A stretch of DNA of 62,824 nt, taken from Candidatus Pacearchaeota archaeon. Its GTDB lineage: Archaea; Nanobdellota; Nanobdellia; Pacearchaeales; GW2011-AR1. Each line of letters starts with the position of its first letter. Positions within the stretch are counted from its first letter, which is position 1. The notes beneath the pieces are model-generated. The model was not told the DNA's origin and did not search any database. It was given only the letters and a program-made list of their open reading frames with translations. Where the stretch lies: the NCBI GenBank assembly GCA_018303925.1, contig JAGVXF010000010.1, positions 1-62,824 of the forward strand, read 5' to 3'. This document shows, piece by piece, positions 19,995 through 54,397 of this stretch. Made by a program: the position numbers and the translations under genes.

Positions 19995-20012
19995 GAGAGT
20001 TATAGACTCTTT

Positions 20013-41955: not shown

Positions 41956-42393
41956 ATGAATTGCCCGTTTTGCCATAGTACAACATTAAAGGTAACCAAT
42001 AAAAGAAATTCTATTGAAGGGATAAGGAGAAGAAGAGAATGCTTGAAATGCAAAAAACGTTTTACTACGTATGAAAAAATTGCCGAATACGACATTTATG
42101 TCATTAAAAAGGACTCTTCAAGGGAAAAATTTGACCCAGACAAACTGAAAATGGGGCTTGACAAAGCTTTTGAAAAAAGGCCGGTCTCAAAAGATAAAAT
42201 AAATTCAATAGTTTCGGAGATTGAAGAACTGATAAGAAAAAAAGGGAAAACGGAAATAAGGAGCAAATTAATAGGGGAGATTATGATGAAGAAAATAAAA
42301 AAACTTGACAAGGTGGCTTACGTCAGATTTGCATCAGTTTACAGGGATTTTAAGGATATAGAAGATTTTAAAGAGGAATTGAAGGAGTTATAA
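41956..42393 (+). CDS. nrdR: NrdR transcriptional repressor (zinc ribbon plus ATP-cone)
   Basis: MNCPFCHS...CLKCKKRFTTYE zinc ribbon followed by an ATP-cone (VIKKDSSREKFDPDKL...). The stop overlaps the nrdJ start. Confidence 0.9.
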   Translation: MNCPFCHSTTLKVTNKRNSIEGIRRRRECLKCKKRFTTYEKIAEYDIYVIKKDSSREKFDPDKLKMGLDKAFEKRPVSKDKINSIVSEIEELIRKKGKTEIRSKLIGEIMMKKIKKLDKVAYVRFASVYRDFKDIEDFKEELKEL

Positions 42394-44894
42394 TGACGGA
42401 TGAAAATTTAAATAAACCGCTGAAAAAATTAACAAACCTTAATATGAATATTAATCAATTGAAAGTCATTAAGGACAAATACCTTAAAGATTCTCCTACA
42501 GTGGAAGACTGGATAAGAGCAATTTGCCACAGCATTGCACTCTCTGAGATTCTTCATTCTGGAAAAGTAAGCGATGAAGAAATCTTTCGCGGAATTAACC
42601 ATGAAATCATTTCATATGATTCAATGGGAAAAACGGGAAAAATGTATTTACTTCATAAGGGGCTTGAGGATCATAATGAAAGAAAGAAAAATTTTAATAA
42701 ATTCATACAAAACCTGGAAGGAATAAATAAAAAATATCCCGAACTAATAAAAGAAACAGAAGAGAAATTTTACAATCTTTTATCAAGTTTTAATTTTTTG
42801 CCGAATTCCCCCACCTTAATGAATGCGGGAAGGGAACTTCAGCAGTTGTCGGCATGCTTTGTTTTACCTGTGGGTGATTCAATTGAAGAAATTTATGAAT
42901 CTTTGAAAAATATGGCTTTAGTTCACAAGAGCGGAGGAGGAACCGGGTTCTCATTTTCAAATTTGAGGCCCGCAAAAGATGTTGTGATTTCAACAAAAGG
43001 AATTTCTTCAGGCCCTCTTTCATTCATGCAGATTTTTGATAAGTCTACGGAAGTTGTCAAGCAGGGAGGTACAAGAAGAGGAGCAAATATGGGTATTCTT
43101 CATTACACGCATCCCGATATACTCAAGTTTATTGACATGAAAAAAACGCCGGGGGTTATGGAGAATTTTAATGTTTCTGTTACAATAGATGAAAGGTTCA
43201 TGAATGCAGTTAAAAATAACAAGGAATATGAATTAATTAATCCAAGAAGCCATGAGATTGCTGGAAAAATTAATGCAAAAGATGTCTGGGATAAACTCGT
43301 CAGAGGAGCCTGGGAGACAGGAGACCCCGGGATAATAATTATTGACAGAATAAACAATACAGGAAGTAATGCGACACCTCACCTTGGGCAAATTGAATCA
43401 ACGAATCCATGCGGTGAACAGCCTCTTTTGCCGTATGAGCCCTGTAATCTTGGCTCAATAAATCTTTCAAATTTTGTTGATGAGAACAAAAAAAATTTTG
43501 ACTATGAAAAACTAATTGAGACTGTAAAACTTTCGACAAGATTTCTTGATGATGTTATAGATGTAAATTGCTATCCTATCCCGAAAATTGAAGAAATCGC
43601 AAAAAAAACAAGAAGAATTGGTCTTGGGGTTATGGGATGGGCGGAAGCACTTGTTAAATTGAAAATTCCATACAATTCTCCTGAAGCCCTTCTTAAAGCT
43701 GAAGAATTAATGAAAGTGATAAATGAAACGTGCCTTGAGTATTCAAACGAGCTTGCAAAAACCCGGGGAGTTTTTCCTGCTTTTAAAGGAAGTGTTTATG
43801 ACAAAGAAGGTCCTTACTTTAGGAATTACGAAACTTATCCCAGACATTCAGCAAGAACAACAATTGCACCAACGGGGACAATTGCAATTACTGCGGGTCT
43901 GCAAGGGTCGGGAATTGAGCCGTTTTTTGCAGTTGCTTATGTGAGATATAATGCTGCCGGAATCGACGCTTTAAAAAAAGGAGAAACTCCTTCTGGGAAA
44001 GATACCTTTTTTGAAGTAAATCCACTTTTTGAAAAAATCGCCAGAGAAAACAATTATTTTGGTCTTAAAAAAGAAGACCTTTATATAAAAGTTAATGACA
44101 ATCACAAATCCTTATTGGGAATAAAAGAAATTCCTGAAAAAATTCAAAAATTGTTTTTAACTTCACACGATCTAAACCCAAGGGAGCACGTTTTGATGCA
44201 GTGCTCCTTTCAAAAATATACAGACAATGCAGTATCAAAGACTGTCAATTTAAGAAATGAAGCAACTGTTGAAGATGTTGACGAAGTTTACAGGCTTGCT
44301 TACGAAAACGGCGCGAAAGGTGTTACGATCTACAGGGATGGGAGTAAGCAATTTCAGATTCTAAACATTAATGAAAAGGGTAAAAAAGAAGTAAAAAAAG
44401 ATTTGCCCGAGTTTGCTGACTATTACCCGCTCGAAACAGGCCAGGGTCCGATTCATATACATATAAATTACAATGAAGAAAGAATTTCAAAGATTTTTGC
44501 AAATTTGTCCCCTATCGGAACTGAAATTTCAGGAATGGCAACGTCCCTCGCAATTGTTCTTTCAAAATATTTTGAGCTTGGCGGAGACCCTGTGAGAATT
44601 TTAAAGCATCTTAATTCTATAAAGTCAGAAAAGCCTTACGGCTTTGGAAAAAACAGAGTTGATTCAGTTCCACATGCTTTTTCAATAGCAATAAGAAATC
44701 ACCTGATAAAAACAGGAAAATTAAAATCCATAGACAATGGAAATGGTTTTTTATATGCCAACGGAGAAGTTGCAGAAATTGATAAAAATGTGAAGACTCT
44801 TTATTGCTCTAAATGTTTTAGCTCCAACGTCGGAATGATTTCAGGATGCACAGAGCCAACATGCTTTGACTGCGGGTATAGTAAATGCAGTTGA
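42393..44894 (+). CDS. nrdJ: Class II (adenosylcobalamin-dependent) ribonucleotide reductase
   Basis: NPCGEQPLLPYEPCNLGSINL active-site region, 833 aa, C-terminal Cys-rich tail CSKC...CTEPTCFDCGYSKC. Confidence 0.95.
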   Translation: MTDENLNKPLKKLTNLNMNINQLKVIKDKYLKDSPTVEDWIRAICHSIALSEILHSGKVSDEEIFRGINHEIISYDSMGKTGKMYLLHKGLEDHNERKKNFNKFIQNLEGINKKYPELIKETEEKFYNLLSSFNFLPNSPTLMNAGRELQQLSACFVLPVGDSIEEIYESLKNMALVHKSGGGTGFSFSNLRPAKDVVISTKGISSGPLSFMQIFDKSTEVVKQGGTRRGANMGILHYTHPDILKFIDMKKTPGVMENFNVSVTIDERFMNAVKNNKEYELINPRSHEIAGKINAKDVWDKLVRGAWETGDPGIIIIDRINNTGSNATPHLGQIESTNPCGEQPLLPYEPCNLGSINLSNFVDENKKNFDYEKLIETVKLSTRFLDDVIDVNCYPIPKIEEIAKKTRRIGLGVMGWAEALVKLKIPYNSPEALLKAEELMKVINETCLEYSNELAKTRGVFPAFKGSVYDKEGPYFRNYETYPRHSARTTIAPTGTIAITAGLQGSGIEPFFAVAYVRYNAAGIDALKKGETPSGKDTFFEVNPLFEKIARENNYFGLKKEDLYIKVNDNHKSLLGIKEIPEKIQKLFLTSHDLNPREHVLMQCSFQKYTDNAVSKTVNLRNEATVEDVDEVYRLAYENGAKGVTIYRDGSKQFQILNINEKGKKEVKKDLPEFADYYPLETGQGPIHIHINYNEERISKIFANLSPIGTEISGMATSLAIVLSKYFELGGDPVRILKHLNSIKSEKPYGFGKNRVDSVPHAFSIAIRNHLIKTGKLKSIDNGNGFLYANGEVAEIDKNVKTLYCSKCFSSNVGMISGCTEPTCFDCGYSKCS

Positions 44895-45008
44895 ACATCG
44901 CAATTAAGAGACCTGAAAGGCACAAGGCGAAGCACTCGTGAGTTTTTTCTGCAAGAAAAAATACTGAAGCGAAGCGTAGGTATAGTATGACGCAGGAATT
45001 TGTTTAGG
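44890..45008 (+). repeat. Degenerate attC-like site A (good left arm, poor right arm)
   Basis: GTTGAAC-ATCGCAATTAAGAG overlaps the nrdJ TGA and matches the left arms of sites D and F. The only candidate right end is GGAATTT-GTTTAGG. The interior holds two GCGAAGC motifs and a TTTTTTCT-GCA-AGAAAAAA hairpin. Confidence 0.35.
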
Positions 45009-45037
45009 TTTTTACTTATCAAGAAAGATATTTCACA

Positions 45038-45358
45038 CTATCTACTAACTTTTTTATCGATAAATATAGCAATGATATAGATAATAACTAAATTGATAAG
45101 AAACAATAATATTGAGAAATTAGCTCCGAATACCATATCATCTATTATATAAGTTGGTGTAAAGAAAGCGGGAAATCCAATTCCTAATTGTGAATTAAAA
45201 CAATTTGCAGAACTGGTTACACACCTTAGCATTATTGCAAAAGGTAATCCACTTAAGAATTATTCAAGAATGAAATTAATTATTGTTAATGCTAATAGAC
45301 TTAGGAATGAGTATGTAATCTTATTTTTATTCGGTTTAATTAATTCTTTCCAGTTCAT
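45038..45358 (-). pseudogene. Small membrane-protein ORF interrupted by an in-frame TAA (45260-45262)
   Basis: MNWKELIKPNKNKITYSFLSLLALTIINFILE-TAA-FLSGLPFAIMLRCV... is in one frame. The track only lists the distal 64 codons. Confidence 0.35.
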
Positions 45359-45450
45359 CTATACAAAAATATCCAATTACTTATTAATATTGATCGGTAA
45401 TTTCAATCTAAGTAAAAAAACCGTTAAGAATAAATTCTGAGTAATATTGT

Positions 45451-45554
45451 TTATAACGTCAGGGATATACGAAGTTTTTCTGGAGCGAAGCGGAAGAAAA
45501 ATTTGAGCGAAGCTCGAGTGGCAGAGCGAAGCGAAAGTCTGCAAGACGTTCCCA
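45451..45554 (+). repeat. Weak attC-like site B
   Basis: TTATAACGTCAGG...CTGCAAGACGTTCCC, where AACGTC and GACGTT are complementary. The interior carries three GCGAAGC motifs. The core boxes fit the RYYYAAC/GTTRRRY consensus poorly. Confidence 0.3.
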
Positions 45555-45597
45555 AAATCAGAATGATTTTGAGTTCAAAAAAGTGCGATACAATAAA

Positions 45598-45605
45598 TTT
45601 ATATA
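45598..45605 (+). promoter_or_regulatory. TATA box for ORF 45628
   Basis: TTTATATA lies 23 nt upstream of the ATG (leaderless-type spacing). Confidence 0.5.
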
Positions 45606-45627
45606 ATTCTTTAGAATTATCCTTTTT

Positions 45628-46137
45628 ATGGTAGAAATTGTTTTTCAAAGAAAGTATAAAGTAGATAGAGATTCTTTTTCCGAAGAAATAAGAACAAAAT
45701 TTAGTTTTGCTAATGAATATTTTGAAGTTTTGTTAAGTGAAACAGAAGGAGAATCGAAAAATACAGACAGTTTCATTCTAAAAATAATAAAAAGACAAAA
45801 CTTCAAAGAAGAATATACTAAGTTAAATGAAAAAGAAAAGGAATTTGCAAGAGATTTAATTTATACAATTATACAATTAAATCCAAAATTAATTGAAAAG
45901 AAATTTGTCCTGAATGCTCTTTCTAATGAAGAAGCAAAAGGGAAGAAAGCAATTATGAGTTCATTAGAATTGATTGACAAATTTCTTGAAGAAAAAGAAA
46001 AAAATAAAAATAATAAACAAATTCCTTTTCTTGAATCTCAAAACAAATTTTTTTGGATAATAACTGCGGTTGGAAAAAGAATCGTTTCAGCAAATTCTGA
46101 TTATATAGAAAAAAACAATTTCGTAAAAATACTCTAA
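45628..46137 (+). CDS. Hypothetical cassette protein
   Basis: 169-codon ORF, followed 20 nt later by attC-like site C. Confidence 0.45.
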   Translation: MVEIVFQRKYKVDRDSFSEEIRTKFSFANEYFEVLLSETEGESKNTDSFILKIIKRQNFKEEYTKLNEKEKEFARDLIYTIIQLNPKLIEKKFVLNALSNEEAKGKKAIMSSLELIDKFLEEKEKNKNNKQIPFLESQNKFFWIITAVGKRIVSANSDYIEKNNFVKIL

Positions 46138-46156
46138 GAGCACTTTTTTGAATTTC

Positions 46157-46246
46157 ATTTAACATCAGGATTATGAGAAGTTCGCCGTAGGCGAATTTAG
46201 GTGTAGCGAGGTGCAACCGAGCGAAACCGTTAAATCGCTGTTAGTT
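46157..46246 (+). repeat. attC-like site C
   Basis: ATTTAAC-ATCAGGATTATGAG...CCGTTAAATCGCT-GTTAGTT. The arms pair over about 10 bp with bulges on the left arm. Central TTCGCC-GTA-GGCGAA hairpin. Confidence 0.6.
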
Positions 46247-46251
46247 GCCCA

Positions 46252-46300
46252 CGAATACTTGGAGTGGTTGATTTTTAGTGCAACGATGCCGAAGGCAAAA
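46252..46300 (+). repeat. 49-nt conserved block, copy 1 (direct repeat of 50199-50247)
   Basis: CGAATACTTGGAGTGGTTGATTTTTAGTGCAACGATGCCGAAGGCAAAA; 47 of 49 positions are identical to copy 2. Confidence 0.9.
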
Positions 46301-46405
46301 TTTTAGAGTTAAAGCGAACTCTGGGATGGTGGGAACGCCAGAAATTTTTATAATATTTCAGATTGTCGCCGTCGTTTTCGTAAGTTGGGGGGCAGTAGTT
46401 TTTTG

Positions 46406-46428
46406 CTTCTTTTTTTCTAAAAAAGAAG
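46406..46428. repeat. T/A palindrome CTTCTTTTTT-TCT-AAAAAAGAAG followed by a G-run (block 2, copy 1)
   Basis: Perfect 10-bp arms. Related copies lie at 50303-50323 and 52289-52310, and an inverted degenerate copy at about 49817-49845. Confidence 0.85.
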
Positions 46429-46474
46429 AATTTTTGAGGGGGTTTCGGTCGTCACTATATAATGGGCCAAAAGA

Positions 46475-46482
46475 TTTAAATA
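46475..46482 (+). promoter_or_regulatory. TATA box for the RHH-methyltransferase operon
   Basis: The context CCAAAAGATTTAAATA is conserved with 50347-50363. Confidence 0.5.
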
Positions 46483-46526
46483 TAATGCTCATTTATTTAC
46501 ATTTGTATTCAAATGAGGGAAATAAA

Positions 46527-46667
46527 ATGGTTCAAAAAAATGTGACTCTAAGTCTTGATGAAGACACTTACGAAAAATATAGAGAATTTTGTAAGAAAAA
46601 TGCTGTTGCCTTATCAAGAAGTATAGAAGTATTCATGGAAGAAAAAACAAAAAGGGGGGAAAAATGA
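46527..46667 (+). CDS. Ribbon-helix-helix (CopG/controller-like) protein
   Basis: MVQKNVTLSLDEDTYEKYREFCKKNAVALSRSIEVFMEE fits a beta-strand plus two-helix RHH pattern. It overlaps the methyltransferase start. The upstream part of track ORF 46278-46667 is repeat DNA. Confidence 0.55.
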   Translation: MVQKNVTLSLDEDTYEKYREFCKKNAVALSRSIEVFMEEKTKRGEK

Positions 46668-48265
46668 GCCAAGAACTTTTATCAGTAGGTCAGGCATCTC
46701 AATGGGCGAGTGATTATTTAGACAGACCCGTGACTACTTCCAATATTAGTTATTTAATCCAGTACGCAAAAATTAAGAAATATCTTGATGAAGAAAAGAA
46801 AATAAAAGTCAATCTAAATGAATTAAAAGAATATTATGATGAAAATTTAGTAAAAAAACAAGAGTCATGGAAAAGCCAATTAGGGAAAGATTTAAACTGG
46901 GCATTATCTTTCTCGCATTTAAGAGAATCTGATACGACAAAACACGTTCATAGACTACACCCCTATAAAGGAAAGTTTATACCTCAACTTGTAGAATATT
47001 TCTTGGATTCTCATCTAAACACTTTTAAGAAAAAGGTCTTTTTTAAAGAAGGTAATATAATTCTTGACCCATTTATGGGAAGCGGAACAACGCTCGTTCA
47101 ATCATCCGAGATAGGTTTACATTCCATTGGGATAGATGTTTCTGATTTTAATTGTTTAATTTCCAAAGTTAAAATTGAAAAATATGATTTAGTTAGATTG
47201 GATAGAAAAGCAAGAGACATTTGTTTTAAAACAAGAGAATTTAGCCAAAAAGTATTTGATGATTCATTTGATGAACAATTAAAAGAAAAATTAAACGAAT
47301 TTAATAAAAAATATTTTCCTAATCCTGAGTTTAAGAGTAATGTTTGGAAAGGTATAATTAGAAACGAAGAACAATATGGGGAAGAAAAGTTAAAGCAGTT
47401 TCTAAAGGAAAATGAAGAATTTTTTAAAAAGAATGGAACAAAAGACAAATCTAACTTATTAAGTGAAAAAGAGATGAATAATTTTCTCAATAAGTGGTTT
47501 TCAAGAAGAGTAAGACAAGAATTATTTTATTATATAAAACTTTTAAGGGAAATTGGGGATGAAGACTTAAAAAATGTTCTAAGAATTATTTTAAGTAGAA
47601 CTGCTCGTTCGTGTAGGGCTACAACCCACTCGGATTTAGCGACATTAACAGAACCTCAAAATGGACCATATTATTGTAGAAAACACAAGAAATTATGCAC
47701 CCCGATAAACTCTATTGTTAAACACTTAATAAGATACACTTATGACACAATAAACAGATTAAATGAGTTTTCTAAATTAAAAAAAAGTGTATTTAGTAAT
47801 GTTATTCATGGAGATTCAAGAGAAGTAGATATTTTTGGAGAAATCAAAACGCAAAATCCTGAATTTTACAAGTTTTTAGTAAATAAAAAAATAGATGGAG
47901 TTTTTACTTCTCCGCCTTATGTTGGTCAAATAGATTACCATGAACAACACGCTTATGCTTATGAGCTTTTTGATATTGCAAGAAAAGATGATAAAGAAAT
48001 AGGCCCTTTATTCAACGGACAAGGACAGAAAGCAAGGGAGGAATATGTTAAAGGGATAAGCAAAGTTTTCATAAATATAAGTAAATTTGTAAAAGATGAT
48101 GGAGACTTTTTTGTTGTTGCAAATGATAAATATAATCTTTATCCTATAATTGCTGAAAAAAGCGGATTAAAAATAGTAGAACAATTTAAAAGACCTGTTC
48201 TAAACCGAACAGAGCGAGATAGACAACCTTATGCAGAGATTATATTTCATATGAGAAAAAAGTAA
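46664..48265 (+). CDS. Type II DNA methyltransferase (N4-C or N6-A, SPPY type; motif I precedes motif IV)
   Basis: HRLHPYKGKFIPQL and LDPFMGSGTT (motif I) lie near aa 95-155. VFTSPPYVGQIDY (motif IV) lies near aa 415. Confidence 0.85.
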   Translation: MSQELLSVGQASQWASDYLDRPVTTSNISYLIQYAKIKKYLDEEKKIKVNLNELKEYYDENLVKKQESWKSQLGKDLNWALSFSHLRESDTTKHVHRLHPYKGKFIPQLVEYFLDSHLNTFKKKVFFKEGNIILDPFMGSGTTLVQSSEIGLHSIGIDVSDFNCLISKVKIEKYDLVRLDRKARDICFKTREFSQKVFDDSFDEQLKEKLNEFNKKYFPNPEFKSNVWKGIIRNEEQYGEEKLKQFLKENEEFFKKNGTKDKSNLLSEKEMNNFLNKWFSRRVRQELFYYIKLLREIGDEDLKNVLRIILSRTARSCRATTHSDLATLTEPQNGPYYCRKHKKLCTPINSIVKHLIRYTYDTINRLNEFSKLKKSVFSNVIHGDSREVDIFGEIKTQNPEFYKFLVNKKIDGVFTSPPYVGQIDYHEQHAYAYELFDIARKDDKEIGPLFNGQGQKAREEYVKGISKVFINISKFVKDDGDFFVVANDKYNLYPIIAEKSGLKIVEQFKRPVLNRTERDRQPYAEIIFHMRKK

Positions 48266-48266
48266 T

Positions 48267-48980: not shown

Positions 48981-49754
48981 TTAAACATCCATTTTCTTTT
49001 CAGCAACTTCTTTTATCTTATTCTGTATTTTTTCCTTAAACTCTTTACCAACTTCATCAAAGATTTCTAAAACTTCTTCATAAGTTCCTTTTCCACCAAG
49101 AAGTTCCCAGAATTTTTCAGCAACATAAAGCTCTTTTTCTTCATCCAAAAATCCTTGCATTGTAAATCTGTTATATGGTTCTGGATGATAAGGATTATAA
49201 GGAATAGCCAAAATTGTATTTACTTTCTTTTTTCTGAGTGCAACCCATTCCAATAACTTCTGCTTTGATTTAACAAAAACATCTATATTGGGTTTTGCTG
49301 TTTTTATCTCAATATAATATTCATCATTGCCTTTCTTTAAGAATAAATCGGCTCTGACTTTTATTTTTCTTCCACCATTTTTGTTACATTGCAAAATATC
49401 TTTTATTTCTTTTTCTTTATTTGCAGTTCTTGTTCCATTCTTTATTTCTTGAAGAATCTGGGAAATTACAGAGTTCTCTTCATTTGTAATTTCTCCCTCA
49501 ACATCATAACCAGTTTTTACTTCATCGTAATGAGCTAATGCGACAATTTCAGAAATTTTCTCATAAACTGACATTCCCAATGTTGTAGCTAATGAATGTA
49601 TGAAAGAATAAGAAGCTACTTTTTCGGAATCTTGCATAAGTTTAACCAAAAAAGGCATAGAGGTTGTTTCTCTTACATATTTGGACAACTTGTCATTTAG
49701 TTTTGACCTTAGCAAATTCTTGATTTCGTTAATTTGATTTTCATTGAGTGTCAT
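48981..49754 (-). CDS. Putative type II restriction endonuclease (PD-(D/E)XK; possibly TdeIII-like)
   Basis: VRADLFLKKGNDEYYIEIKTAKPN gives a D...E-x-K catalytic pattern. It is convergent with the methyltransferase. Confidence 0.5.
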   Translation of the reverse strand: MTLNENQINEIKNLLRSKLNDKLSKYVRETTSMPFLVKLMQDSEKVASYSFIHSLATTLGMSVYEKISEIVALAHYDEVKTGYDVEGEITNEENSVISQILQEIKNGTRTANKEKEIKDILQCNKNGGRKIKVRADLFLKKGNDEYYIEIKTAKPNIDVFVKSKQKLLEWVALRKKKVNTILAIPYNPYHPEPYNRFTMQGFLDEEKELYVAEKFWELLGGKGTYEEVLEIFDEVGKEFKEKIQNKIKEVAEKKMDV

Positions 49755-49865
49755 CTTAATAAGAAAGATTGCCTTTTATTTATAAATGCTATTATTTACG
49801 TAACCGAAACCCCCTCTTTCTTTAATAAAAAACAAGAAAAATATTTGGGTGCAACGAAGTGAAAC

Positions 49866-49926
49866 CTCTTATCGTTTGTTAGGCGAAATTTTAATTTCGT
49901 GAGTTCTCTCGTTGGTTCGATAAGAG
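49866..49926 (+). repeat. Family-2 hairpin, copy a (GTTAGGC in the loop)
   Basis: CTCTTATCG-ttt-GTTAGGC...(33 nt)...CGATAAGAG with a perfect 9-bp stem and an inner GAAAT/ATTTC hairpin. Confidence 0.6.
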
Positions 49927-50065
49927 AAGTATTTTTCTGTTTTTACAATCGAGCAAACCACAGTTTGCGAGACTATCTGTCGCGTGAGCGACTTCGAGCC
50001 GATCCCCTAATTTTTCTGAAAGAAAAATATTCGTAATCGTTTTCGAGCCCACCGAGTAATATGTC

Positions 50066-50193
50066 GCCTAACATCGCGATTAAGCGACCCGTAGGGCTCG
50101 GGCGGAGTGAAACGACCCCGAGTGTTTTTGCGAAGCAAAAATATGGGTGGAAAAACCTGCAAGGTTTTGGAACCGCTTAATCTGCTGTTAGTT
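50066..50193 (+). repeat. attC-like site D
   Basis: GCCTAAC-ATCGCG-ATTAAGCG...CGCTTAAT-CTGCT-GTTAGTT. The centre holds four small hairpins, including TTTTTGCGAAGCAAAAA and AAAACC-TGCA-AGGTTTT. Confidence 0.7.
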
Positions 50194-50198
50194 TCTCC

Positions 50199-50247
50199 CG
50201 AATACTTGGAGGGATTGATTTTTAGTGCAACGATGCCGAAGGCAAAA
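50199..50247 (+). repeat. 49-nt conserved block, copy 2
   Basis: CGAATACTTGGAGGGATTGATTTTTAGTGCAACGATGCCGAAGGCAAAA. Confidence 0.9.
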
Positions 50248-50302
50248 AATCAAAGTCGTCGTGTCTATTGTTTTTTATGGGGGTTTACGCCGCCGTTTTT
50301 TG

Positions 50303-50323
50303 CTTCTTTTTTTAAAAAAGAAG
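50303..50323. repeat. T/A palindrome CTTCTTTTTT-T-AAAAAAGAAG plus G-run (block 2, copy 2)
   Basis: Perfect 10-bp arms, followed by GTGGGG. Confidence 0.85.
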
Positions 50324-50355
50324 AGTGGGGATTTCCGTTTAATGACCAAAAGATA

Positions 50356-50363
50356 TTTAAATA
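50356..50363 (+). promoter_or_regulatory. TATA box for the ArsR operon
   Basis: TTTAAATA lies 24 nt upstream of the ATG at 50387. Confidence 0.5.
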
Positions 50364-50386
50364 TTAGCTTATTCTAATACAAGAAT

Positions 50387-50701
50387 ATGAAAGAACTATA
50401 TGAAATTCATGCTGAAATGTGCAAAGTATTTTCAAATTCAACAAGGTTGGAAATATTGAATTTATTGAGAGATAAAGAATTATCAGTAACAGAATTGATA
50501 AAAAAGACAAGATTAAGTCAAGCCAATATCTCCCAGCATTTGTCAATTATGAAATCCAAAGGAATTGTTGTCTCAAATAGAAAGGGCAAGAATATCTATT
50601 ACAGACTCACAAATCCAAAAATAATCAAAGCATTTGATATAATAAGAGATGTTTTGGCTGAAAAATTAAAGAAAAATGGGAAATATGTTAAAAACTTATG
50701 A
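50387..50701 (+). CDS. ArsR/SmtB-family HTH regulator
   Basis: FSNSTRLEILNLL...ELSVTELIKKTRLSQANISQHLSIMKSKGIV winged-HTH pattern. Confidence 0.85.
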   Translation: MKELYEIHAEMCKVFSNSTRLEILNLLRDKELSVTELIKKTRLSQANISQHLSIMKSKGIVVSNRKGKNIYYRLTNPKIIKAFDIIRDVLAEKLKKNGKYVKNL

Positions 50702-50710
50702 GGTGCTAGA

Positions 50711-51274
50711 ATGAAAAAGATATTTACAATCTTGATTTTCGGTATGTTGTTATTAAGTGTAAGTTTAGTTTTTGCTCACGAACATGATTTTAATGAAACA
50801 AAACAAATTATAAATTCTGGAATTAGTTGCGATAAACTCACAGATGAACAGCTTGAATCCATTGGTGATTATTATATGGAGCAAATGCACCCTGGCGAAG
50901 CCCATAAGATGATGGATCAAATGATGGGTGGAGAAGGTTCTGAAAGTTTAAGACAAGTACAGATTAACATGGCAAAACGGCTTTATTGTAATGAAGATAT
51001 CGGAGGAATGATGGGTGGTGGCATGATGAATATGATGATGGGAAATAATATGATGGGAAACTATCCAGCATATTATGGTTATAATAATTTTTGGAATGTA
51101 CTTTGGATGGTTTTTTTAATAGGAGCAATTGCGCTGATAGTTTGGCTGATTTATAAATTTACAAAAAAAGGGAAAGAATCTGAAACTCCAATTAATATTT
51201 TACAGAAAAGATATGCTAAAGGAGAAATAAACAAAAAACAATTTGAGGAAATGAAAAAGGGGTTAAGGAAGTGA
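50711..51274 (+). CDS. Secreted Met/Gly-rich protein with a TM anchor and a C-terminal SHOCT domain
   Basis: Signal-like N-terminus, MMGGGMMNMMMGNNMMG tract, one TM segment, then ILQKRYAKGEINKKQFEEMKKGL (SHOCT-like). Confidence 0.6.
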   Translation: MKKIFTILIFGMLLLSVSLVFAHEHDFNETKQIINSGISCDKLTDEQLESIGDYYMEQMHPGEAHKMMDQMMGGEGSESLRQVQINMAKRLYCNEDIGGMMGGGMMNMMMGNNMMGNYPAYYGYNNFWNVLWMVFLIGAIALIVWLIYKFTKKGKESETPINILQKRYAKGEINKKQFEEMKKGLRK

Positions 51275-51582
51275 GGCTCATGGAAAAAGATAAAAGCACA
51301 TTGGTATGGATTTTCATTGCTGTAATTGTTGTTCTTTTTTTCATAGGAAGTTTTGGAATGGGCAGTTATGGTATGATAGGTTTCGGAATGGGATTTGGAT
51401 TTATTTTCATGTTGCTTTTCTGGGGTCTTATTATATGGCTTATAGTCACTTTAATCAATACGAGCCAATCCAATAAAAGTGAGCCAGATTCATTAACAAT
51501 CCTAAAAAGAAGATATGCTTCTGGAGAAATCACAAAGAGGCAATATGAAGAAATGAGGAAGGAATTAAACATCGGAATTTAA
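51271..51582 (+). CDS. Small membrane protein with a C-terminal SHOCT domain
   Basis: Two TM segments and ILKRRYASGEITKRQYEEMRKEL. The last codons lie inside attC-like site E. Confidence 0.6.
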   Translation: MRLMEKDKSTLVWIFIAVIVVLFFIGSFGMGSYGMIGFGMGFGFIFMLLFWGLIIWLIVTLINTSQSNKSEPDSLTILKRRYASGEITKRQYEEMRKELNIGI

Positions 51583-51652
51583 CGAAGTCGCCAAAGGCGA
51601 TTTGGGTGGAGAAGCCTGCAAGGTTTCGGAACCGTTAAATTTCCTGTTAGTT
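51564..51652 (+). repeat. attC-like site E
   Basis: ATTAAAC-ATCGG-AATTTAACG...CGTTAAATT-TCCT-GTTAGTT with a 9-bp perfect inner stem. The centre has TCGCC-AAA-GGCGA and the CCTGCAAGG hairpin shared with site D. Confidence 0.7.
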
Positions 51653-51719
51653 GCGTCTTTTCGTAGAAAAGACCTAGGGATAGTGCAACGATTTTTGCGA
51701 AGCAAAAAATCCCGAAGAG

Positions 51720-51734
51720 TTTAGAATTACCACA
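51720..51734. repeat. Left copy of a 15-bp perfect inverted repeat bracketing ORF 51735-52010
   Basis: TTTAGAATTACCACA. The reverse complement lies at 52046-52060. Confidence 0.9.
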
Positions 51735-52010
51735 CTATCGTTTTTTATATTTCAATTTTAATGCTAAAATTAGAATTATTGCACAAGATACAAAATTTAA
51801 TCCTGTAACAATTTCCAACAATAAATCAGAGATTACTAAAAGTGCATAAAGAAAAGTAATAAGACTACAAAAAGTCCAAATGATGTAAGAATTGATATTT
51901 GCACTTGCTATTTTTTTCATTAAATCTCTTATTGTTGGAAAGTATCCTATCGTTGCAATAATTCCTGTACTCGCATAAAGAAAGGCAATAATTGTTAATA
52001 TGAATTCCAT
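51735..52010 (-). CDS. SemiSWEET/PQ-loop-like 3-TM protein
   Basis: 91 aa with three hydrophobic helices. GYFPTIRDLMKK sits at the position of the PQ motif. Resembles the 20013-20369 product in layout. Confidence 0.5.
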   Translation of the reverse strand: MEFILTIIAFLYASTGIIATIGYFPTIRDLMKKIASANINSYIIWTFCSLITFLYALLVISDLLLEIVTGLNFVSCAIILILALKLKYKKR

Positions 52011-52045
52011 AATACATTTATTAAAATTGAAATGAATATAAAGTT

Positions 52046-52060
52046 TGTGGTAATTCTAAA
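52046..52060. repeat. Right copy of the 15-bp perfect inverted repeat
   Basis: TGTGGTAATTCTAAA is the reverse complement of 51720-51734. Confidence 0.9.
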
Positions 52061-52064
52061 TTGC

Positions 52065-52201
52065 AACTAACATCGCGATTAAGAGAAGTTGTTTGCAGTA
52101 ACTTTAATCTATAAATAGGCAAACAATTTGGGCTAATTTCTGGTTTTCACTAAGAAAATTTGCGAAGCAAAAAGAAATTACCTCTTAATCTGCTGTTGCT
52201 T
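52065..52201 (+). repeat. attC-like site F
   Basis: AACTAAC-ATCGCG-ATTAAGAG...CTCTTAAT-CTGCT-GTTGCTT. The arms are as in site D, with a compensatory C:G to A:T change. The centre differs (TTGTTTGC/GCAAACAA hairpin and TTTGCGAAGCAAA). Confidence 0.7.
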
Positions 52202-52288
52202 GACCGAACGAAGTGAGGCACGAGTGGAGCAAGAAGCGACCTCGTGAGTTTTAATTTTTCTTTCAGGGTGGGGCCCGCCCGCTTTTTG

Positions 52289-52310
52289 TTTCTTTTTTTC
52301 TAAAAAGAAA
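52289..52310. repeat. T/A palindrome TTTCTTTTT-TTCT-AAAAAGAAA plus G-run (block 2, copy 3)
   Basis: Perfect 9-bp arms, followed by ATGGGGGAG. Confidence 0.8.
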
Positions 52311-52323
52311 ATGGGGGAGTTTT

Positions 52324-53007
52324 TTATCTTCCAATTTTTTGTAAAAATTCTTCTCTTGTAATTTCTTTAAGAGTCTTCAAATCAAGATAATAATTCTTTG
52401 GTTCAACTTCAACTTGCATTGACAAAGAATTTATTTTACCGCAATCACATTCTATAACATAAAAATTAGGTGTGTCAGAAGTGTAGCTCATTAAGTTACC
52501 CCCACATTTAAGAGAACATATTTCGTTTGATTCTGAATTAGTAAGAACACTTGTCTTAGGATAACCTTTTTGATTAGCCAATTCTATAAATGAATTTTCT
52601 GCCTTAATGGTTTGAGAATTTTCAACAATACCATTAATCTTATTTGAAATTGAGGGATAGAATTGTAAGGATAGAACGATAATAATTAATAATACTATGA
52701 AAGATAACCAAAAGAATCCTTTTCTATTCTGTATTTTATATTTGTTTTTATGATAATCATCTTGAGATAAGGATTTAATTGACCAATAAATTTTCTTTCC
52801 ATTAAACATACAGATTAGCAAAATAAGAGGAATTGATATCATCAAAGCAGTAGCAGAATTATGATTAAATCCCAATGTCCTAATGTAATTATATGATAAA
52901 TATAATAAAAAGATTAAAAATCCAACAACGAAAAGATAAACAATCATCTTGTATTTTTCTTCTTGTTCTTCCCTTGTAATAAGTCTAACTTTAATAGGTT
53001 CTGCCAT
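52324..53007 (-). CDS. Hypothetical multi-TM protein with a Cys-containing extracytoplasmic C-terminal domain
   Basis: Four hydrophobic segments, then a soluble domain with CSLKCGG...CDCG. Confidence 0.5.
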   Translation of the reverse strand: MAEPIKVRLITREEQEEKYKMIVYLFVVGFLIFLLYLSYNYIRTLGFNHNSATALMISIPLILLICMFNGKKIYWSIKSLSQDDYHKNKYKIQNRKGFFWLSFIVLLIIIVLSLQFYPSISNKINGIVENSQTIKAENSFIELANQKGYPKTSVLTNSESNEICSLKCGGNLMSYTSDTPNFYVIECDCGKINSLSMQVEVEPKNYYLDLKTLKEITREEFLQKIGR

Positions 53008-53059
53008 AAAATAAATAGAAAAGCCAAACTTAATAAATATATGCTTCTAATTTGATTTT

Positions 53060-53269
53060 ATGGAACTAAAAAAACAAAAAGAAATTAGACAACACAAAGC
53101 AAATTTAGGCATAGGTGTTGCTGGAGGATTTGTCGCTGGTGGGAGTTTGCTTGCTTATCAAATATTAATACCATATGGTTTGGGTTATGCTCTTCTGGGA
53201 GCGGTTTTTGTTGCTTTAGTTATCTATAAAATGTCAGTTAAGATGATAGAGAAAAATGTTAATCGCTAA
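53060..53269 (+). CDS. Small 2-TM membrane protein
   Basis: 69 codons, Gly/Ala-rich helices. Confidence 0.4.
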   Translation: MELKKQKEIRQHKANLGIGVAGGFVAGGSLLAYQILIPYGLGYALLGAVFVALVIYKMSVKMIEKNVNR

Positions 53270-53315
53270 AACTCCCCCTAAATAAATAGAAAAATTTGGG
53301 AGAGCGACAGCGAAC

Positions 53316-53379
53316 CTTTTATCCATTGTTATGCAAAGTGCAAAGCATTTTGTTGTTTTTCTCGTCGGTCGGATAAAAG
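53316..53379 (+). repeat. Family-2 hairpin, copy b (GTTATGC in the loop)
   Basis: CTTTTATCC-att-GTTATGC...GGATAAAAG with a 9-bp stem. Two positions differ from copy a and both are compensated. Confidence 0.6.
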
Positions 53380-53496
53380 AAGTTTTTCTCTGAAACGAAG
53401 TTTCAGCTATCTGTCCGAAGGACTGCGGGCAATCTCTCACTATCTTTGGGCGGGAAAGAAAGAAAAATTAAAATTTGGGCGAAGCCAAGCAACATA

Positions 53497-53526
53497 AGAT
53501 TATCAATAGTTTATTATTGATAATCT
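53497..53526. other. Perfect 12-6-12 palindrome; candidate recombinase core site (dif/attI-like) or operator
   Basis: AGATTATCAATA-GTTTAT-TATTGATAATCT. It ends 25 nt upstream of the recombinase TATA box. Confidence 0.55.
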
Positions 53527-53551
53527 CCTAATTGGGCATGGAAACAATAAA

Positions 53552-53559
53552 TTTAAATA
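53552..53559 (+). promoter_or_regulatory. TATA box for the recombinase gene
   Basis: TTTAAATA lies 23 nt upstream of the ATG at 53582. Confidence 0.5.
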
Positions 53560-53581
53560 ATCGTCTTTCAATCGAATTTTA

Positions 53582-54397
53582 ATGAATGGACTGAGATTAA
53601 AATTAAAAAGAGAACTTGAAATAAGAAATTTTTCTAATCAGACTGTTAAAGCGTATCTTTATTCGGTTGATAAATTTGTGGAATTTTCTAAAGGAAAAGG
53701 ACTAAATGAAGATTCAATTAAAGACTATATTCAAAAAGGTCTTGAAAACAAAAATCCAACGAGTGTTAGAAGGGATTTATTTGCAATTAAATTTTTCTTT
53801 GAAAAGGTATTAAAGCAAAAGGTAAACATCCCAAACCCAAAGAAAAATAAGACTCTCCCGGAGATTCTCACAATTGAAGAAATAAAAAAATTAATCGAAT
53901 CTGCAAATAATATCAAACACCGATTAATAATCAAACTTCTTTATGGATGCGGATTAAGAGTTTCTGAGATTGTAAACCTTAAAGTAAATGATTTGAACTT
54001 TGTTGAAGAATTAATTAAAATAAATCTTGCAAAAGGAAAAAAAGACAGATTTGTTAAGATACCTTCATCAATAAAAGATGAACTTGAAAGTTATTTAAAA
54101 TTAAATAAGCATAATACTTTATTTCCTTCAAATAGAGGTGGAAAATTAACAAAAGATACTATTCAAAAAATTGTTCAAAACTCTGCTAAAAGAGCAGGAA
54201 TTAAAAAAAGAGTTTATCCACATTTATTGAGGCATAGTTTTGCAACGCATCTTCTTGAACAGGGGACGGATTTAAGAATGATTCAAAAATTGCTTGGTCA
54301 TTCTGATATAAAAACCACTCAAATTTATACTCAAATTTCCCAAGCTTCAATAAAAAATATAAAAAGTCCGCTTGATAATTTACAATATGGCAAGTAA
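53582..54397 (+). CDS. xerA: Xer-type tyrosine recombinase (XerA/XerC/XerD-like; no IntI-specific insertion)
   Basis: N-terminal SAM-like core-binding domain, GLRVSEI (box I Arg), KGKKDR, HLLRHSFATHLL and LLGHSDIKTTQIYTQ (His and Tyr). Only about 40 aa lie between KGKKDR and HLLRH. Confidence 0.9.
   Translation: MNGLRLKLKRELEIRNFSNQTVKAYLYSVDKFVEFSKGKGLNEDSIKDYIQKGLENKNPTSVRRDLFAIKFFFEKVLKQKVNIPNPKKNKTLPEILTIEEIKKLIESANNIKHRLIIKLLYGCGLRVSEIVNLKVNDLNFVEELIKINLAKGKKDRFVKIPSSIKDELESYLKLNKHNTLFPSNRGGKLTKDTIQKIVQNSAKRAGIKKRVYPHLLRHSFATHLLEQGTDLRMIQKLLGHSDIKTTQIYTQISQASIKNIKSPLDNLQYGK

Follow-up and report, generated by a model that had tools for sequence, protein, structure and literature searches.

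A candidate integron-like cassette array beside a XerA-family recombinase gene in the chromosome of a Pacearchaeota archaeon

The interval between an nrdJ gene and a tyrosine recombinase gene in Candidatus Pacearchaeota archaeon, a small DPANN archaeon from Rifle groundwater, raises the question of whether an array of integron-type cassettes can be served by a recombinase of the Xer family. The window, that is, the whole stretch of DNA that was analysed, comprises 62,824 nt of contig JAGVXF010000010.1 (assembly GCA_018303925.1), and the interval, which is chromosomal, spans 8.7 kb between the stop codon of nrdJ (44892-44894) and the start of the recombinase gene (53582), in agreement with the coordinates of an earlier note on this DNA. 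The reading adopted here, to which a probability of roughly 0.55 is attached, is that these 8.7 kb form an integron-like chromosomal cassette array with a XerA-family recombinase. The observation made in the earlier note is upheld in part: its interval, sites, cargo and recombinase are borne out, while its layout, its SemiSWEET label for one gene and the completeness of its first site are not.

The array consists of six cassettes of 0.5-3.9 kb bounded by a short box, which reads (T)AACAT on the + strand and ATGTT(A) on the - strand. Its non-coding elements and the two genes that enclose it are the following.

42393-44894, + strand: nrdJ-type ribonucleotide reductase (Pfam Ribonuc_red_lgN, Ribonuc_red_lgC, TSCPD)
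44885-44914, + strand: site A, half-site (left-half HMM, E 2.8e-4; direct reading)
45454-45550, + strand: site A2, decayed, box TAACGT at 45455-45459 (direct reading)
46155-46248, + strand: site B, full attC-like site, box 46161-46165 (covariance model, 47.4 bits, E 3e-9)
49824-50066, + strand: conserved non-coding element of type 2, immediately before site C
50064-50195, + strand: site C, full attC-like site, box 50070-50074 (covariance model, 51.5 bits, E 3e-10)
51562-51654, + strand: site D, full attC-like site of the short class, box 51568-51572 (covariance model, 85.6 bits, in training set)
52063-52203, + strand: site E, full attC-like site, box 52069-52073 (covariance model, 44.3 bits, E 2e-8)
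52204-52322, + strand: "tail" and D2 element after site E (blastn matches reaching 52272/52273; comparison with L255; D2 repeat family)
53270-53487, + strand: second type-2 element, immediately before the terminal site
53491-53526, + strand: terminal site, candidate attI/dif-like site (direct reading; same arrangement in relatives)
53582-54397, + strand: XerA-family tyrosine recombinase, 271 aa (NCBIfam XerA_Arch, 249.7 bits, cut-off 220)

The site plan is an AAC box, a 6-nt spacer, an inverted box, a variable centre, a complementary arm and a GTT box, and the attC architecture ascribed to the repeats in the earlier note was recovered in four full sites by a covariance model whose training set was 15 sites from other contigs together with site D. 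These four lie between 46155 and 52203, all on the + strand, with E values from 2e-8 to 7e-19 for the 62.8-kb window; a fifth full site is absent, the next match in the whole 62.8-kb window scoring 14 bits (E 0.87). Site C is the example quoted in that note (GCCTAAC-ATCGCG...), site B is matched by left and right half-site HMMs alike, the arms of site D (ATTTAACG/CGTTAAAT) are compensatory with respect to sites C and E, and site E has about 40 metagenome copies that are 80-97% identical. In addition there are one half-site and one decayed site. Site A, at the end of the array far from xerA, where nrdJ is a conserved flank, consists of a box AACAT (44894-44898) overlapped by the nrdJ stop codon TGA, a spacer ATCGCA and a left arm ATTAAGAG, with no matching right arm and no full covariance-model match. 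The claim that three sites adjoin stop codons holds for sites A, B and D, which begin 0-15 nt from the stops of nrdJ and of the genes at 45628-46137 and 51271-51582, with the correction that A is a left half only. Site A2 retains its left arm GGATATACG, AAGT, hairpin 1 and ATTTGAG, its right arm being gone; it is 85-91% identical to elements of L134, L141, L171 and L227, and the covariance-model match near it is weak (12.7 bits). Neither this decayed site nor the terminal site at 53491-53526 figures in the earlier note.

The type-2 element before site C has the order ATTTGGG, hairpin, right arm, GTTAGG, about 40 nt, left arm, AAGT, and by that order looks like a circularly permuted site. Elements 75-94% identical to it stand in 11 further loci, and it shares homology with the second type-2 element, the core of which (53297-53480) lies between ATTTGGG direct repeats and is 73-94% identical in about 20 loci. 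The tail and D2 modules, a hairpin with a T-run followed by a G-run/AT-palindrome, are non-coding and conserved, and accompany the site in many contigs.

The sites, 80-135 nt long and located at the cassette ends when the - strand is read, fold as single-stranded DNA into a Y shape composed of a 4-bp R stem (AACA/TGTT), a small asymmetric loop, a 10-11-bp stem whose sequence is free and whose pairing is always kept, and a tip of two terminal hairpins that flank a conserved ATTTGGG. The single-strand folding that had been proposed earlier gave -30.1 kcal/mol for site C (z -5.2) and -24.6 kcal/mol for site E (z -4.7). The same shape was obtained with RNAalifold from 15 sites, with double compensatory changes in 15 of 25 pairs, among them spacer and hairpin-1 pairs that had not been used in site selection. 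At arm position 7, across 109 pattern-selected sites, A-T occurs 81 times, C-G 14 times and T-A twice, and the spacer triplets covary as GCG/CGC, GGA/TCC and GGC/GCC. The + strand folds better than the - strand by 0.5-3 kcal/mol in all four sites, and all ten GCGAAGC motifs in the array form GNA triloops on the + strand. GNA triloops make very stable DNA mini-hairpins, C(GNA)G being typical of stable DNA, not RNA, hairpins. On the reading preferred here, the folded + strand would be the recombination substrate.

Read on the minus strand, the locus presents the recombinase, transcribed divergently, then an attI-like site, then cassettes each with an attC-like site at its end, which is the classical integron order. 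In the earlier note the layout was taken to be non-classical, with the recombinase at the R' end. Since the sites are nearly symmetrical and join at the box which that note called R'', this claim falls, and since the minus-strand layout is classical, the polarity given there has to be reversed.

The terminal site, which probably serves as the cassette insertion point, comprises an AACAT box (53491-53495), one base, and a perfect 30-bp palindrome AGATTATCAATA-GTTTAT-TATTGATAATCT (53497-53526) of dif-like 12-6-12 geometry. A right-hand GTT box is absent, and 55 nt separate the end of the site from the start codon of xerA, which is transcribed away from it. Box and palindrome lie upstream of xerA in 15 listed loci, with more found in further comparisons, and in every relative examined the AACAT box and its 5' flank family are common to the terminal and the attC-like sites. 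Two observations count against the XerA-driven reading: the palindrome arms vary between genomes, always remaining palindromic, and such variation is uncommon where a conserved protein reads the site; and terminal-type sites occur without XerA in L229 and L141.

The window encodes a single tyrosine recombinase, whose catalytic set (R126, K151, H214, R217, H240, Y249) is intact and whose best match among solved structures is P. abyssi XerA (4a8e, 4e-48). Against its 249.7 bits on XerA_Arch, it scores 213 bits on the IntI model TIGR02249 (cut-off 265), matched as two stretches, while a true IntI used as a positive control reaches 373 bits; in the alignment the IntI-specific insertion of about 45 aa is missing. 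It was thus correctly described as Xer-like, with no IntI domain. On the reading preferred here, XerA would be the catalyst of cassette exchange.

The pairing of array and recombinase recurs in other genomes. In 26 DPANN xerA loci of different species, all 44 half-site HMM matches at E<0.01 lie upstream of xerA and on its strand, and none lies in the 176 kb downstream of it (binomial p 4e-19); matches occur in 12 of the 17 xerA loci whose upstream sequence is 800 nt or longer. The pairing, with its polarity, is shared by at least 12 DPANN genomes, counted at species level, and by 4 metagenome contigs found by their sites (L145, L195, L207, L246), whose XerA-like genes, 41-63% identical, are always on the same side and the same strand relative to the sites. 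Sites occur on both strands in 1 of 113 contigs. The association is not universal: most site-bearing metagenome contigs show no XerA, which is present in 3 of the 9 that extend at least 5 kb beyond the last site. Also counted against the XerA-driven reading are L184, where the array abuts core genes, and the identity of the array in six assemblies of the window's own strain.

Evidence on exchange comes from sequences around the box. The 40 nt before it are 85-100% identical, and what follows is either an attC-like body or the terminal palindrome; this switch is seen within L020, within L012 and in 7 inter-genome pairs. L020 carries a 213-nt box-to-box unit three times at 100% identity, and two of the copies form a tandem that abuts the terminal site. 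L214, a complete contig whose two 71-nt ends are identical, closes to give a box-to-box unit of 1,055 nt; the junction is the product expected from excising 52069-53491 of the window, although the contig could alternatively be a collapsed tandem repeat and not a circle. These junction mosaics and box-to-box units, as far as sequence comparison goes, point to recombination at the box. Breakpoints at the box are seen in the mosaics, in the solo cassette of L251, where homology stops at the box (window position 52073), and in some long near-identical alignments that begin there; on the other side, most internal ends of near-identical alignments (57 of 73) are off boxes, and in L255, 99.7% identical to the window's sequence, the breakpoint of the one strain-level cargo difference seen next to that sequence falls within the site E tail. 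With conserved modules of 200-250 nt, homologous recombination could shuffle the cargo.

The foremost alternative, which is considered unlikely, is that the array is a CALIN beside a housekeeping XerA: an IntI elsewhere or in another cell moves or moved the array, XerA and the palindrome are a XerA/dif pair for dimer resolution, and the array is where it is since the dif neighbourhood tolerates or attracts insertions. This accords with the XerA_Arch cut-off, which as an NCBIfam equivalog denotes housekeeping XerA, and with the type IA topoisomerase gene (topA) that follows xerA in 11 relatives, a position in the core genome that would suit an enzyme with no role beyond chromosome dimer resolution. 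It accords also with the geometry of the palindrome, which in several relatives reads TGGTATCATAA-N6-TTATGATACCA and resembles P. abyssi dif (ATTGGATATAA-TCGGCC-TTATATCTAAA), with the distance of many sites from any XerA, and with the findings that archaeal integrons are mostly CALINs and that bacterial IntI1 recombined 8 of 9 archaeal attCs tested (Ghaly et al. 2022, PMC9668308). A hot spot, however, leaves unexplained why all 44 matches are one-sided and one-stranded, why palindrome and attC-like sites have the AACAT box and flank in common, why identical flanks are joined at the box to either partner, and why identical tandem units stand against the terminal site. Moreover, related loci totalling 0.9 Mb contain no IntI-type gene, every tyrosine recombinase there being without the insertion, Thermococcales dif is not beside xerA, and the GC skew has no switch at 53.5 kb.

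The cargo of the array is as follows.

46527-49754, both strands: 3.9-kb cassette; RHH protein and N6/N4 DNA methylase (+), 237-aa ORF and TdeIII-type restriction endonuclease (-); Pfam PF01555 2.7e-16, PF09520 8e-63, DUF6364 1.9e-4
50387-51582, + strand: 1.5-kb cassette; ArsR-family regulator and two SHOCT-domain membrane proteins; Pfam HTH_5 4.7e-15, SHOCT 7.6e-6 and 7.3e-8
51735-52010, - strand: 0.5-kb cassette; 91-aa membrane ORF
52324-53269, both strands: cassette nearest xerA; 227-aa membrane ORF (-) and 69-aa membrane ORF (+), neither with a Pfam match

The Pfam matches bear out the restriction-modification and ArsR/SHOCT cargo named earlier, and give no support to the label SemiSWEET-like for 51735-52010. 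The third gene of the 1.5-kb cassette has its last five codons inside site D. Among about 230 related loci, 8 of the 12 cassette proteins of the window, the 227-aa protein included, have no homologue; the 69-aa ORF has one (L170, 82%), and RHH, methylase and ArsR each show a single weak match that covers a fragment at 30-41%. The 91-aa protein is identical in L251, where it stands alone among core genes, and in L255. Upstream of xerA, nearly every ORF is unique to its genome. Across the 230 or so related loci, the non-coding elements are 80-97% identical.

This contrast could also arise if the repeats were structured intergenic elements without site-specific recombination, an explanation that appears improbable. 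The repeats would then be lineage-specific folded RNA or DNA modules of 80-250 nt, for example terminators/insulators or stability elements of a genomic island, and the cargo would differ because homologous recombination between long modules swaps the intervening DNA. Modules that run 65-125 nt past the GTT box with hairpin and T-run motifs, the L255 breakpoint within the tail, the alignment ends mostly off boxes, and cassettes that, read by eye, seem to hold their own BRE/TATA-like promoters are all in keeping with this; covariation does not distinguish RNA from DNA folding, although the C(GNA)G triloops favour DNA. The explanation is opposed by sites that keep the same strand with respect to xerA no matter how neighbouring genes are oriented, by the lack of any Rfam family match even at E<=1, by the sharp switch at a 5-nt box between unrelated partners, by the exact box-to-box units, and by the box-bounded solo cassette amid core genes.

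It is very improbable that the sites are MITE-like transposon remnants, non-autonomous elements with terminal inverted repeats mobilized by a transposase encoded elsewhere: element size (80-135 nt), inverted ends, numerous metagenome copies and a DDE transposase gene further along the source contig would fit, but the inverted arms covary freely with no conserved sequence, the copies in the window are clustered in one interval on one side of xerA and not dispersed, no target-site duplications were seen, and a viral/mobile-element collection gave chance-level single matches only.

If the array is indeed worked by XerA, the enzyme would bind both the duplex terminal site and the folded attC-like sites and would exchange one strand at the box, the junction left by this single-strand exchange being resolved by replication. 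Cassettes would leave as box-to-box circles and would be inserted mainly beside xerA.

What this analysis adds is the polarity in 26 loci, the terminal site, the junction mosaics, the box-to-box units and the self-closing contig, together with variable cargo beside 80-97% identical sites and the absence of an IntI-type gene from 0.9 Mb. The central proposal of the earlier note, an attC-type array with a Xer-type recombinase, gains from this recurrence, from the terminal site and mosaics and from the lack of IntI; its layout and its comparison with the pdif modules of Acinetobacter are not supported. That likeness is weak, since pdif modules are pairs of 28-bp duplex Xer sites, whereas the repeats here are folded sites of 80-135 nt. 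With respect to archaeal integrons, 539 attCs and only six IntIs have been reported (Ghaly et al. 2022, PMC9668308), and the apparent lack of an integrase in most archaeal cassette arrays may be due to pairing with a Xer-family recombinase.

The 8.7 kb between the stop codon of nrdJ (44892-44894) and the start of the recombinase gene (53582), which holds small unrelated genes, is a real cassette array of the attC type. The architecture of its repeat family, described in the earlier note as an AAC-like box, a spacer, an inverted box, a variable centre, a complementary arm and a GTT-like box, was seen again both in a repeat search and by direct reading of the window. A scan of the window with a generic AAC/inverted-arm/GTT pattern gave 59 matches against about 35 expected by shuffling, which is no better than chance, and was dropped. 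Since so loose a pattern performs at chance level in AT-rich DNA, the family was enlarged from other sequences, and family-specific scans and a covariance model were used instead. A metagenome scan with a two-part pattern, whose bait represented the long site class only, matched at least 118 contigs; half-site HMMs were built from 151 unique sites, and the covariance model was built from 15 short sites and run over the whole window with filters off. This self-built model bore out the attC-like character of the repeats, scoring sites D, C, B and E at 85.6, 51.5, 47.4 and 44.3 bits, all on the + strand, with no other match above 14 bits in the whole window. These four full sites are spaced at 3.9, 1.5 and 0.5 kb; site A, at the nrdJ stop, is a left half alone, and a decayed copy, A2, lies at 45454-45550. 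A search of Rfam over the interval gave no match at the gathering thresholds or at E<=1.

In the consensus a site folds into a Y, which consists of a 4-bp stem (AACA/TGTT), a TC bulge, a stem of 10-11 bp made of three spacer pairs and the variable arm, and two hairpins around a conserved ATTTGGG. Double compensatory changes are found at 15 of the 25 consensus pairs, including pairs that played no part in the selection of the sites; when sites are selected by ATTAAG...CTTAAT alone, the arm position that follows pairs as A-T in 81 cases, as C-G in 14 and as T-A in two. Outside the (T)AAC and GTT(A) boxes, pairing stays at the level expected from base composition. The sites thus show what is looked for in an attC site, namely an imperfect palindrome with R'', L'', L' and R' boxes, AAC...GTT ends, a central spacer that stays unpaired and a terminal structure that varies. 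Judged by eye, extrahelical G or T of the IntI type are absent from the L stem, whose only irregularities are a conserved A.C mismatch and, in the CTGCT spacer class, a bulged T. In L209 (818-1569) a unit of about 250 nt stands in three tandem copies, beginning exactly at the box of an attC-like site, and every copy ends in a GTTAG-like motif.

The folded strand would be the + strand of the window, on which all four full sites fold better by 0.5-3 kcal/mol. Ten of the eleven GCGAAGC heptamers in the window, which provide small C(GNA)G-type hairpins with their loops, lie inside the array (44927-53479), all on the + strand, and the reverse complement of the heptamer is absent from the window.

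The gene that follows the array, xerA (53582-54397, + strand), encodes the only tyrosine recombinase in the window, and the proposal that this 271-aa protein is of the Xer rather than the IntI type held: it scores 249.7 bits with the NCBIfam model XerA_Arch (NF040815), whose cut-off is 220. With the IntI model TIGR02249 (cut-off 265) it reaches 213 bits, and the match is split into two stretches that leave out roughly 70 profile positions and with them the IntI-specific region, while a true IntI used as a positive control reaches 373 bits. The closest solved structures are the XerA proteins of P. abyssi (PDB 4a8e, 4e-48) and T. acidophilum (5hxy, 1.5e-41). An insertion of about 45 aa present in the IntIs of Aliivibrio (Vibrionaceae), Shewanella and Treponema is missing from the window protein and from its array-linked relatives down to 41% identity (alignment A1), and a search with a true IntI as query over 0.9 Mb of related loci found only recombinases without the insertion. 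The enzyme therefore falls outside the IntI clade by which IntegronFinder and Mazel recognize integrons, and inside the XerA family.

Before xerA, 55 nt from its start, lies a perfect 30-bp palindrome, AGATTATCAATA-GTTTAT-TATTGATAATCT (53497-53526). A palindrome with this geometry is found in most relatives, at 55-135 nt upstream of xerA; its arms vary between genomes and yet stay palindromic, and the centre is often GTTTAT or its complement. Some, for example TGGTATCATAA-N6-TTATGATACCA, resemble the dif site of P. abyssi and that of E. coli. An archaeal dif would be a single conserved 28-bp site (11-6-11) at the replication terminus. The window palindrome has a dif-like 12-6-12 geometry; its arms, however, vary between genomes, its place beside xerA is unlike that of dif in Thermococcales, and a GC-skew switch was sought at 53.5 kb, and none was seen. 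Ahead of the palindrome there is always (Y)TAACAT with 1-4 nt after it, together with the 5' flank family of the attC-like sites; no GTT box lies on its far side. Sharing the box and the flank and ending without a GTT box, the palindrome is the last of the site series, and this terminal site is the leading candidate for an attI-like site, for a dif site or for the two in one. Comparable sites were also observed elsewhere: AACAT with a palindrome occurs without an adjacent XerA in L141 (5226-5715), where a convergent ORF with an integrase-like C-terminus follows, and in L229 (minus strand, about 4252), which tells against a simple pairing with XerA, and in L030 (6123, minus strand) a site of the terminal type lies downstream of xerA, inverted.

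Whether the array and the recombinase belong together can be judged from their recurrence. The comparison covered 80 loci around XerA relatives, with one genome per species, including 25 archaeal loci at 46-78% identity that all come from different assemblies. The half-site HMMs gave 44 matches at E<0.01, every one of them upstream of xerA and on the xerA strand (p 4e-19), and none on the opposite strand or in the 176 kb downstream of xerA. Of the 17 loci whose upstream sequence is at least 800 nt long, 12 contain such matches, and a further two give weaker matches. Many of the relatives' contigs stop just upstream of xerA or within a site, as is typical of assemblies in a repeated and variable region. 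Nearly every gene upstream of xerA is confined to its own genome, and a type IA topoisomerase downstream of it is common to 11 loci. Among the contigs collected through their sites, XerA-like genes are present in L145, L195, L207 and L246, where side and strand never differ. Taken together, these comparisons indicate that the association of the array with an XerA-family recombinase is recurrent and polar.

The topoisomerase, a protein of about 750 aa with Toprim, Topoisom_bac and zinc ribbon domains, directly follows xerA in L007-L009, L013, L015-L017, L019, L020, L022 and L024; the window has in its place a 111-aa ORF with a faint match to S-adenosylmethionine lyase. Two genes downstream of xerA is a gene with an NYN domain (54858-55421), which is found as an array cassette in L130 (87% amino acid identity) as well as in L233, L207, L020, L245 and L203, and L260, a strain 96.6% identical to the window, diverges right after it. 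The far side of xerA (54387-54722, 54858-55421) may thus be variable too.

The strongest rival explanation is that the interval is a CALIN, an array without an integrase of its own, which happens to lie beside a housekeeping XerA. The protein has a housekeeping look and a core gene setting. In the reverse test, which is weaker, XerA is present in only 3 of the 9 contigs that extend at least 5 kb beyond the last site, and in L184 the array abuts core genes, so that arrays or single sites away from XerA are common, as are CALINs and solo attCs in bacteria. The more distant XerA-like genes, at 40-48% identity (Bacteroidota, Nitrospirota and two Woesearchaeota), show neither arrays nor terminal sites. 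Proteins in this range from Bacteroidota and Nitrospirota MAGs (L032, L033, L035, L036, L038-L041) include one from Crocinitomicaceae (L033), the only one scored, which at 247.9 bits passes the archaeal XerA equivalog cut-off; arrays were sought beside L033, L035, L036 and L038, and none were seen. If its sites are counted as attC, the window interval has at least two of them less than 4 kb apart with no IntI nearby, which defines a CALIN. Archaeal attC arrays, including those of Nanoarchaeota and Aenigmatarchaeota, were surveyed by Ghaly et al. 2022 (PMC9668308), who found 539 attCs and only six IntIs and classed most arrays as CALINs, and under the rules of that survey the present interval would be a CALIN as well. 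Neither that survey nor a follow-up from 2023, nor a review of the tyrosine recombinases of archaea from 2021, mentions a link to XerA or the terminal site, though a later report may exist.

The place at which cassettes are joined can be located from sequences that share one side of a site and differ on the other. The 40 nt before the box, which is (T)AACAT on the + strand, are 85-100% identical while the sequence that follows is either an attC-like body or the terminal palindrome, and this switch is seen within L020, within L012 and in seven genome pairs. L020 also has an ORF-less 213-nt unit (box, short site and 125 nt) in three copies at 100% identity, bounded exactly from box to box; one copy lies within the array, and the other two, in tandem, directly adjoin the terminal site. 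L214 is a complete contig of 1,126 nt with identical 71-nt ends, which closes as a 1,055-nt box-to-box unit in which the box and an E-like site are followed by a tail, then by a 151-aa ORF and finally by a type-2 element; the junction matches what would be expected from the excision of 52069-53491 from the window (53490/52069, ...GCCAAGCAACAT joined to CGCGATTAAGAG), and it may be a circle or a collapsed tandem copy. In L251 an identical 91-aa cassette protein stands alone among translation-factor genes, with homology that stops at the box, and target-site duplications were sought at this solo insertion without any being found. Long near-identical contig alignments likewise begin at the box and extend across the site, its tail and the gene beyond. 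All of these observations point to joining at the AACAT box.

Joining at the box would set the polarity of the array, since each site would then be tied to the DNA on its GTT side and not to the gene before the box. The six cassettes of the window would accordingly be the following, in the order of the minus strand and each running from box to box.

53491-52069, minus-strand reading, cassette next to the terminal site
52069-51568, minus-strand reading, cassette
51568-50070, minus-strand reading, cassette
50070-46161, minus-strand reading, cassette
46161-45455, minus-strand reading, cassette
45455-44894, minus-strand reading, cassette next to nrdJ

The layout had been regarded as unusual and non-classical. 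On the minus strand the order is that of a classical integron: the terminal site is the first site, xerA is transcribed away from it, and each cassette ends in its site with ...ATGTT.

Ordinary homologous recombination is a second explanation for exchange in the array, and it could be supported by the non-coding modules that accompany the sites, which offer 200-250 nt of homology. These modules are the tails, which extend 65-125 nt past the GTT end, and the type-2 elements. L255, from a sample that also holds a window-like contig, is 99.7% identical to the window from 50215 to about 52250 and then continues with different genes, and the break falls inside the tail of site E and not at the box; 57 of the 73 internal ends of near-identical alignments are also away from boxes. 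The tails of the window (46249-46440, 50196-50340 and 52204-52322) are made up of a hairpin with a T-run followed by an element with a G-run and an AT-palindrome, CCGyTTTTTGyTTCTTTTTTTCTAAAAAGAAAATGGGG, and BRE/TATA-like motifs lie between the tail and the next gene; the tails may be terminator and promoter modules. The type-2 elements (49824-50066 and 53270-53487, and also in L014, L020, L025, L028, L145 and others) resemble a circularly permuted site, with the order ATTTGGG, hairpin, right arm, GTTAGG, short spacer, left arm, AAGT and hairpin; they often stand directly before a box, and one copy is flanked by direct repeats of ATTTGGG. That ATTTGGG, which bounds the type-2 element at 53297-53480, might be the crossover point was considered and is supported neither by the copy at 49824-50066 nor by the breakpoints in L251 and L255.

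The weakest alternatives can be dismissed briefly: the arms of MITE- or REP-type repeats would be conserved rather than covarying, and the copies here are limited to one interval and to the + strand, with no duplications at L251, while for a transposon with inverted repeats at the cassette ends the arms flanking one cassette are non-complementary and those within one site always complementary. A scan of viral contigs for the left half of the site gave 43 single matches at chance level and no right halves.

The source of the window is a DPANN archaeon from groundwater metagenomes of the Rifle aquifer, and its nearest relatives are MAGs labelled Pacearchaeota, Woesearchaeota, Nanoarchaeota, Parvarchaeum and Aenigmatarchaeota. 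The XerA protein recurs with the same neighbours on contigs of several assemblies of Rifle samples, and a search for polymorphism through this protein and a 227-aa cassette protein found an identical arrangement in all assemblies. The cargo includes an RHH protein with an N6/N4 methylase, a convergent restriction enzyme of the TdeIII type, two SHOCT proteins accompanied by an ArsR regulator, and several membrane ORFs that match no family; the label "SemiSWEET-like" attached to one ORF (51735-52010) found no family match to support it. About five cassette ORFs are in the sense orientation relative to the array and about seven are antisense, and BRE/TATA-like motifs, judged by eye, precede cassette genes, so that the array departs from the integron pattern of mostly promoterless, co-oriented cassettes under a common Pc promoter. 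In about 230 related loci, eight of the twelve cassette proteins of the window have no homologue, the RHH protein, the methylase and ArsR have one weak partial match each, and a 69-aa ORF has a single homologue (L170, 82%); the non-coding elements of the array are 80-97% identical across the same loci. Elsewhere in the window, a tRNA with an intron (a 46-nt insertion) at 59991-60107 is matched by Rfam and missed by ARAGORN, and fits an archaeal origin. From about 60970 to 62824 (17390-20816 of the source contig), precomputed Pfam assignments give a fused restriction-modification gene of the MmeI/Eco57I type and then a DDE transposase, at and beyond the window end; some 7 kb away from the array, they make up another region of defence and mobile genes.

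The preferred reading is that XerA catalyses exchange at the attC-like sites, which, as judged from sequence comparison, is given a probability of about 0.55. If so, XerA would join IntI, and XerCD acting on CTX-phi, among the enzymes known to recombine single-stranded sites in folded form, chromosome maintenance would be tied to gene capture in very small genomes, and integron-finding software that depends on IntI would undercount complete systems. It is a tentative and rather doubtful further step that in DPANN archaea of the Pacearchaeota/Woesearchaeota type the sole Xer would both resolve dimers at the palindrome and use it as an attI for cassettes. IntI is the defining feature of integrons, and its extra domain is considered necessary for recombining folded attC sites; a dual-role XerA would make the system an integron working without that domain, would explain the large excess of archaeal attC arrays over IntI genes, and would suggest that IntI integrons and the XerA system are two solutions derived from Xer recombination on folded DNA. 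Archaeal surveys with hundreds of attCs and almost no IntI have attributed this to fragmented assemblies, and the polar pairing of attC array, XerA and dif-like site provides a concrete and testable alternative for at least one large archaeal group. Direct biochemistry is feasible because the components are small: the protein has 271 aa, the sites 80 nt and the terminal site 36 bp.

Among known systems, the pdif modules, or IMEX, of Acinetobacter plasmids are bounded by 28-bp duplex XerC/XerD sites. They resemble the present array in that accessory modules are thought to be moved by the host Xer with no dedicated integrase, but the closeness suggested earlier does not extend to the boundaries, which here are one dif-like palindrome and otherwise folded sites of 80-135 nt. 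The archaeal XerA/dif system shares the protein family of the window enzyme and the inverted arms around a 6-bp centre, and the terminal sites of several relatives have dif-like ATAA-N6-TTAT cores. In Thermococcales, however, dif does not adjoin xerA and its sequence is highly conserved (Cortez et al. 2010, PMC2958812), whereas the arms of the window-type palindrome are variable and it lies 55-135 nt upstream of xerA with the AACAT box of the array.

The CTX-phi system of Vibrio cholerae is, to our knowledge, the only established precedent for a Xer enzyme acting on folded single-stranded DNA as proposed here. In work of 2005 by Val and colleagues, XerCD reportedly integrates the single-stranded DNA of this phage at dif1. 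The proposal has in common with it a folded single-stranded hairpin that mimics a duplex site and is joined to a duplex dif by one strand exchange, with the junction resolved by replication. It differs in that CTX-phi is a phage genome and not a cassette, that its hairpin is destroyed and its integration irreversible, that there is no array of intact sites, and that two Xer proteins are required.

Compared with integrons, the window recombinase lacks the IntI-specific domain, which defines the integrases and contacts the extrahelical bases, and the long stem of the sites lacks such bases of the IntI type. The cassettes are in both orientations, apparently with their own promoters, the array has tails and type-2 modules, and the recombinase-proximal site is a perfect dif-like palindrome. 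The array is nevertheless like an integron in that unrelated accessory cassettes, rich in restriction-modification, regulator and membrane genes, alternate with imperfect-palindrome sites of 80-135 nt, which have AAC/GTT boxes, a paired stem free in sequence, an unpaired spacer and a variable terminal structure and which in both systems are more alike within than between lineages. As in integrons, transcription of the recombinase gene leads away from the array, and duplicates of one cassette stand beside the recombinase-proximal site. That site, distinct from the others, carries the box proposed as the crossover point, at which the units would also have their boundaries.
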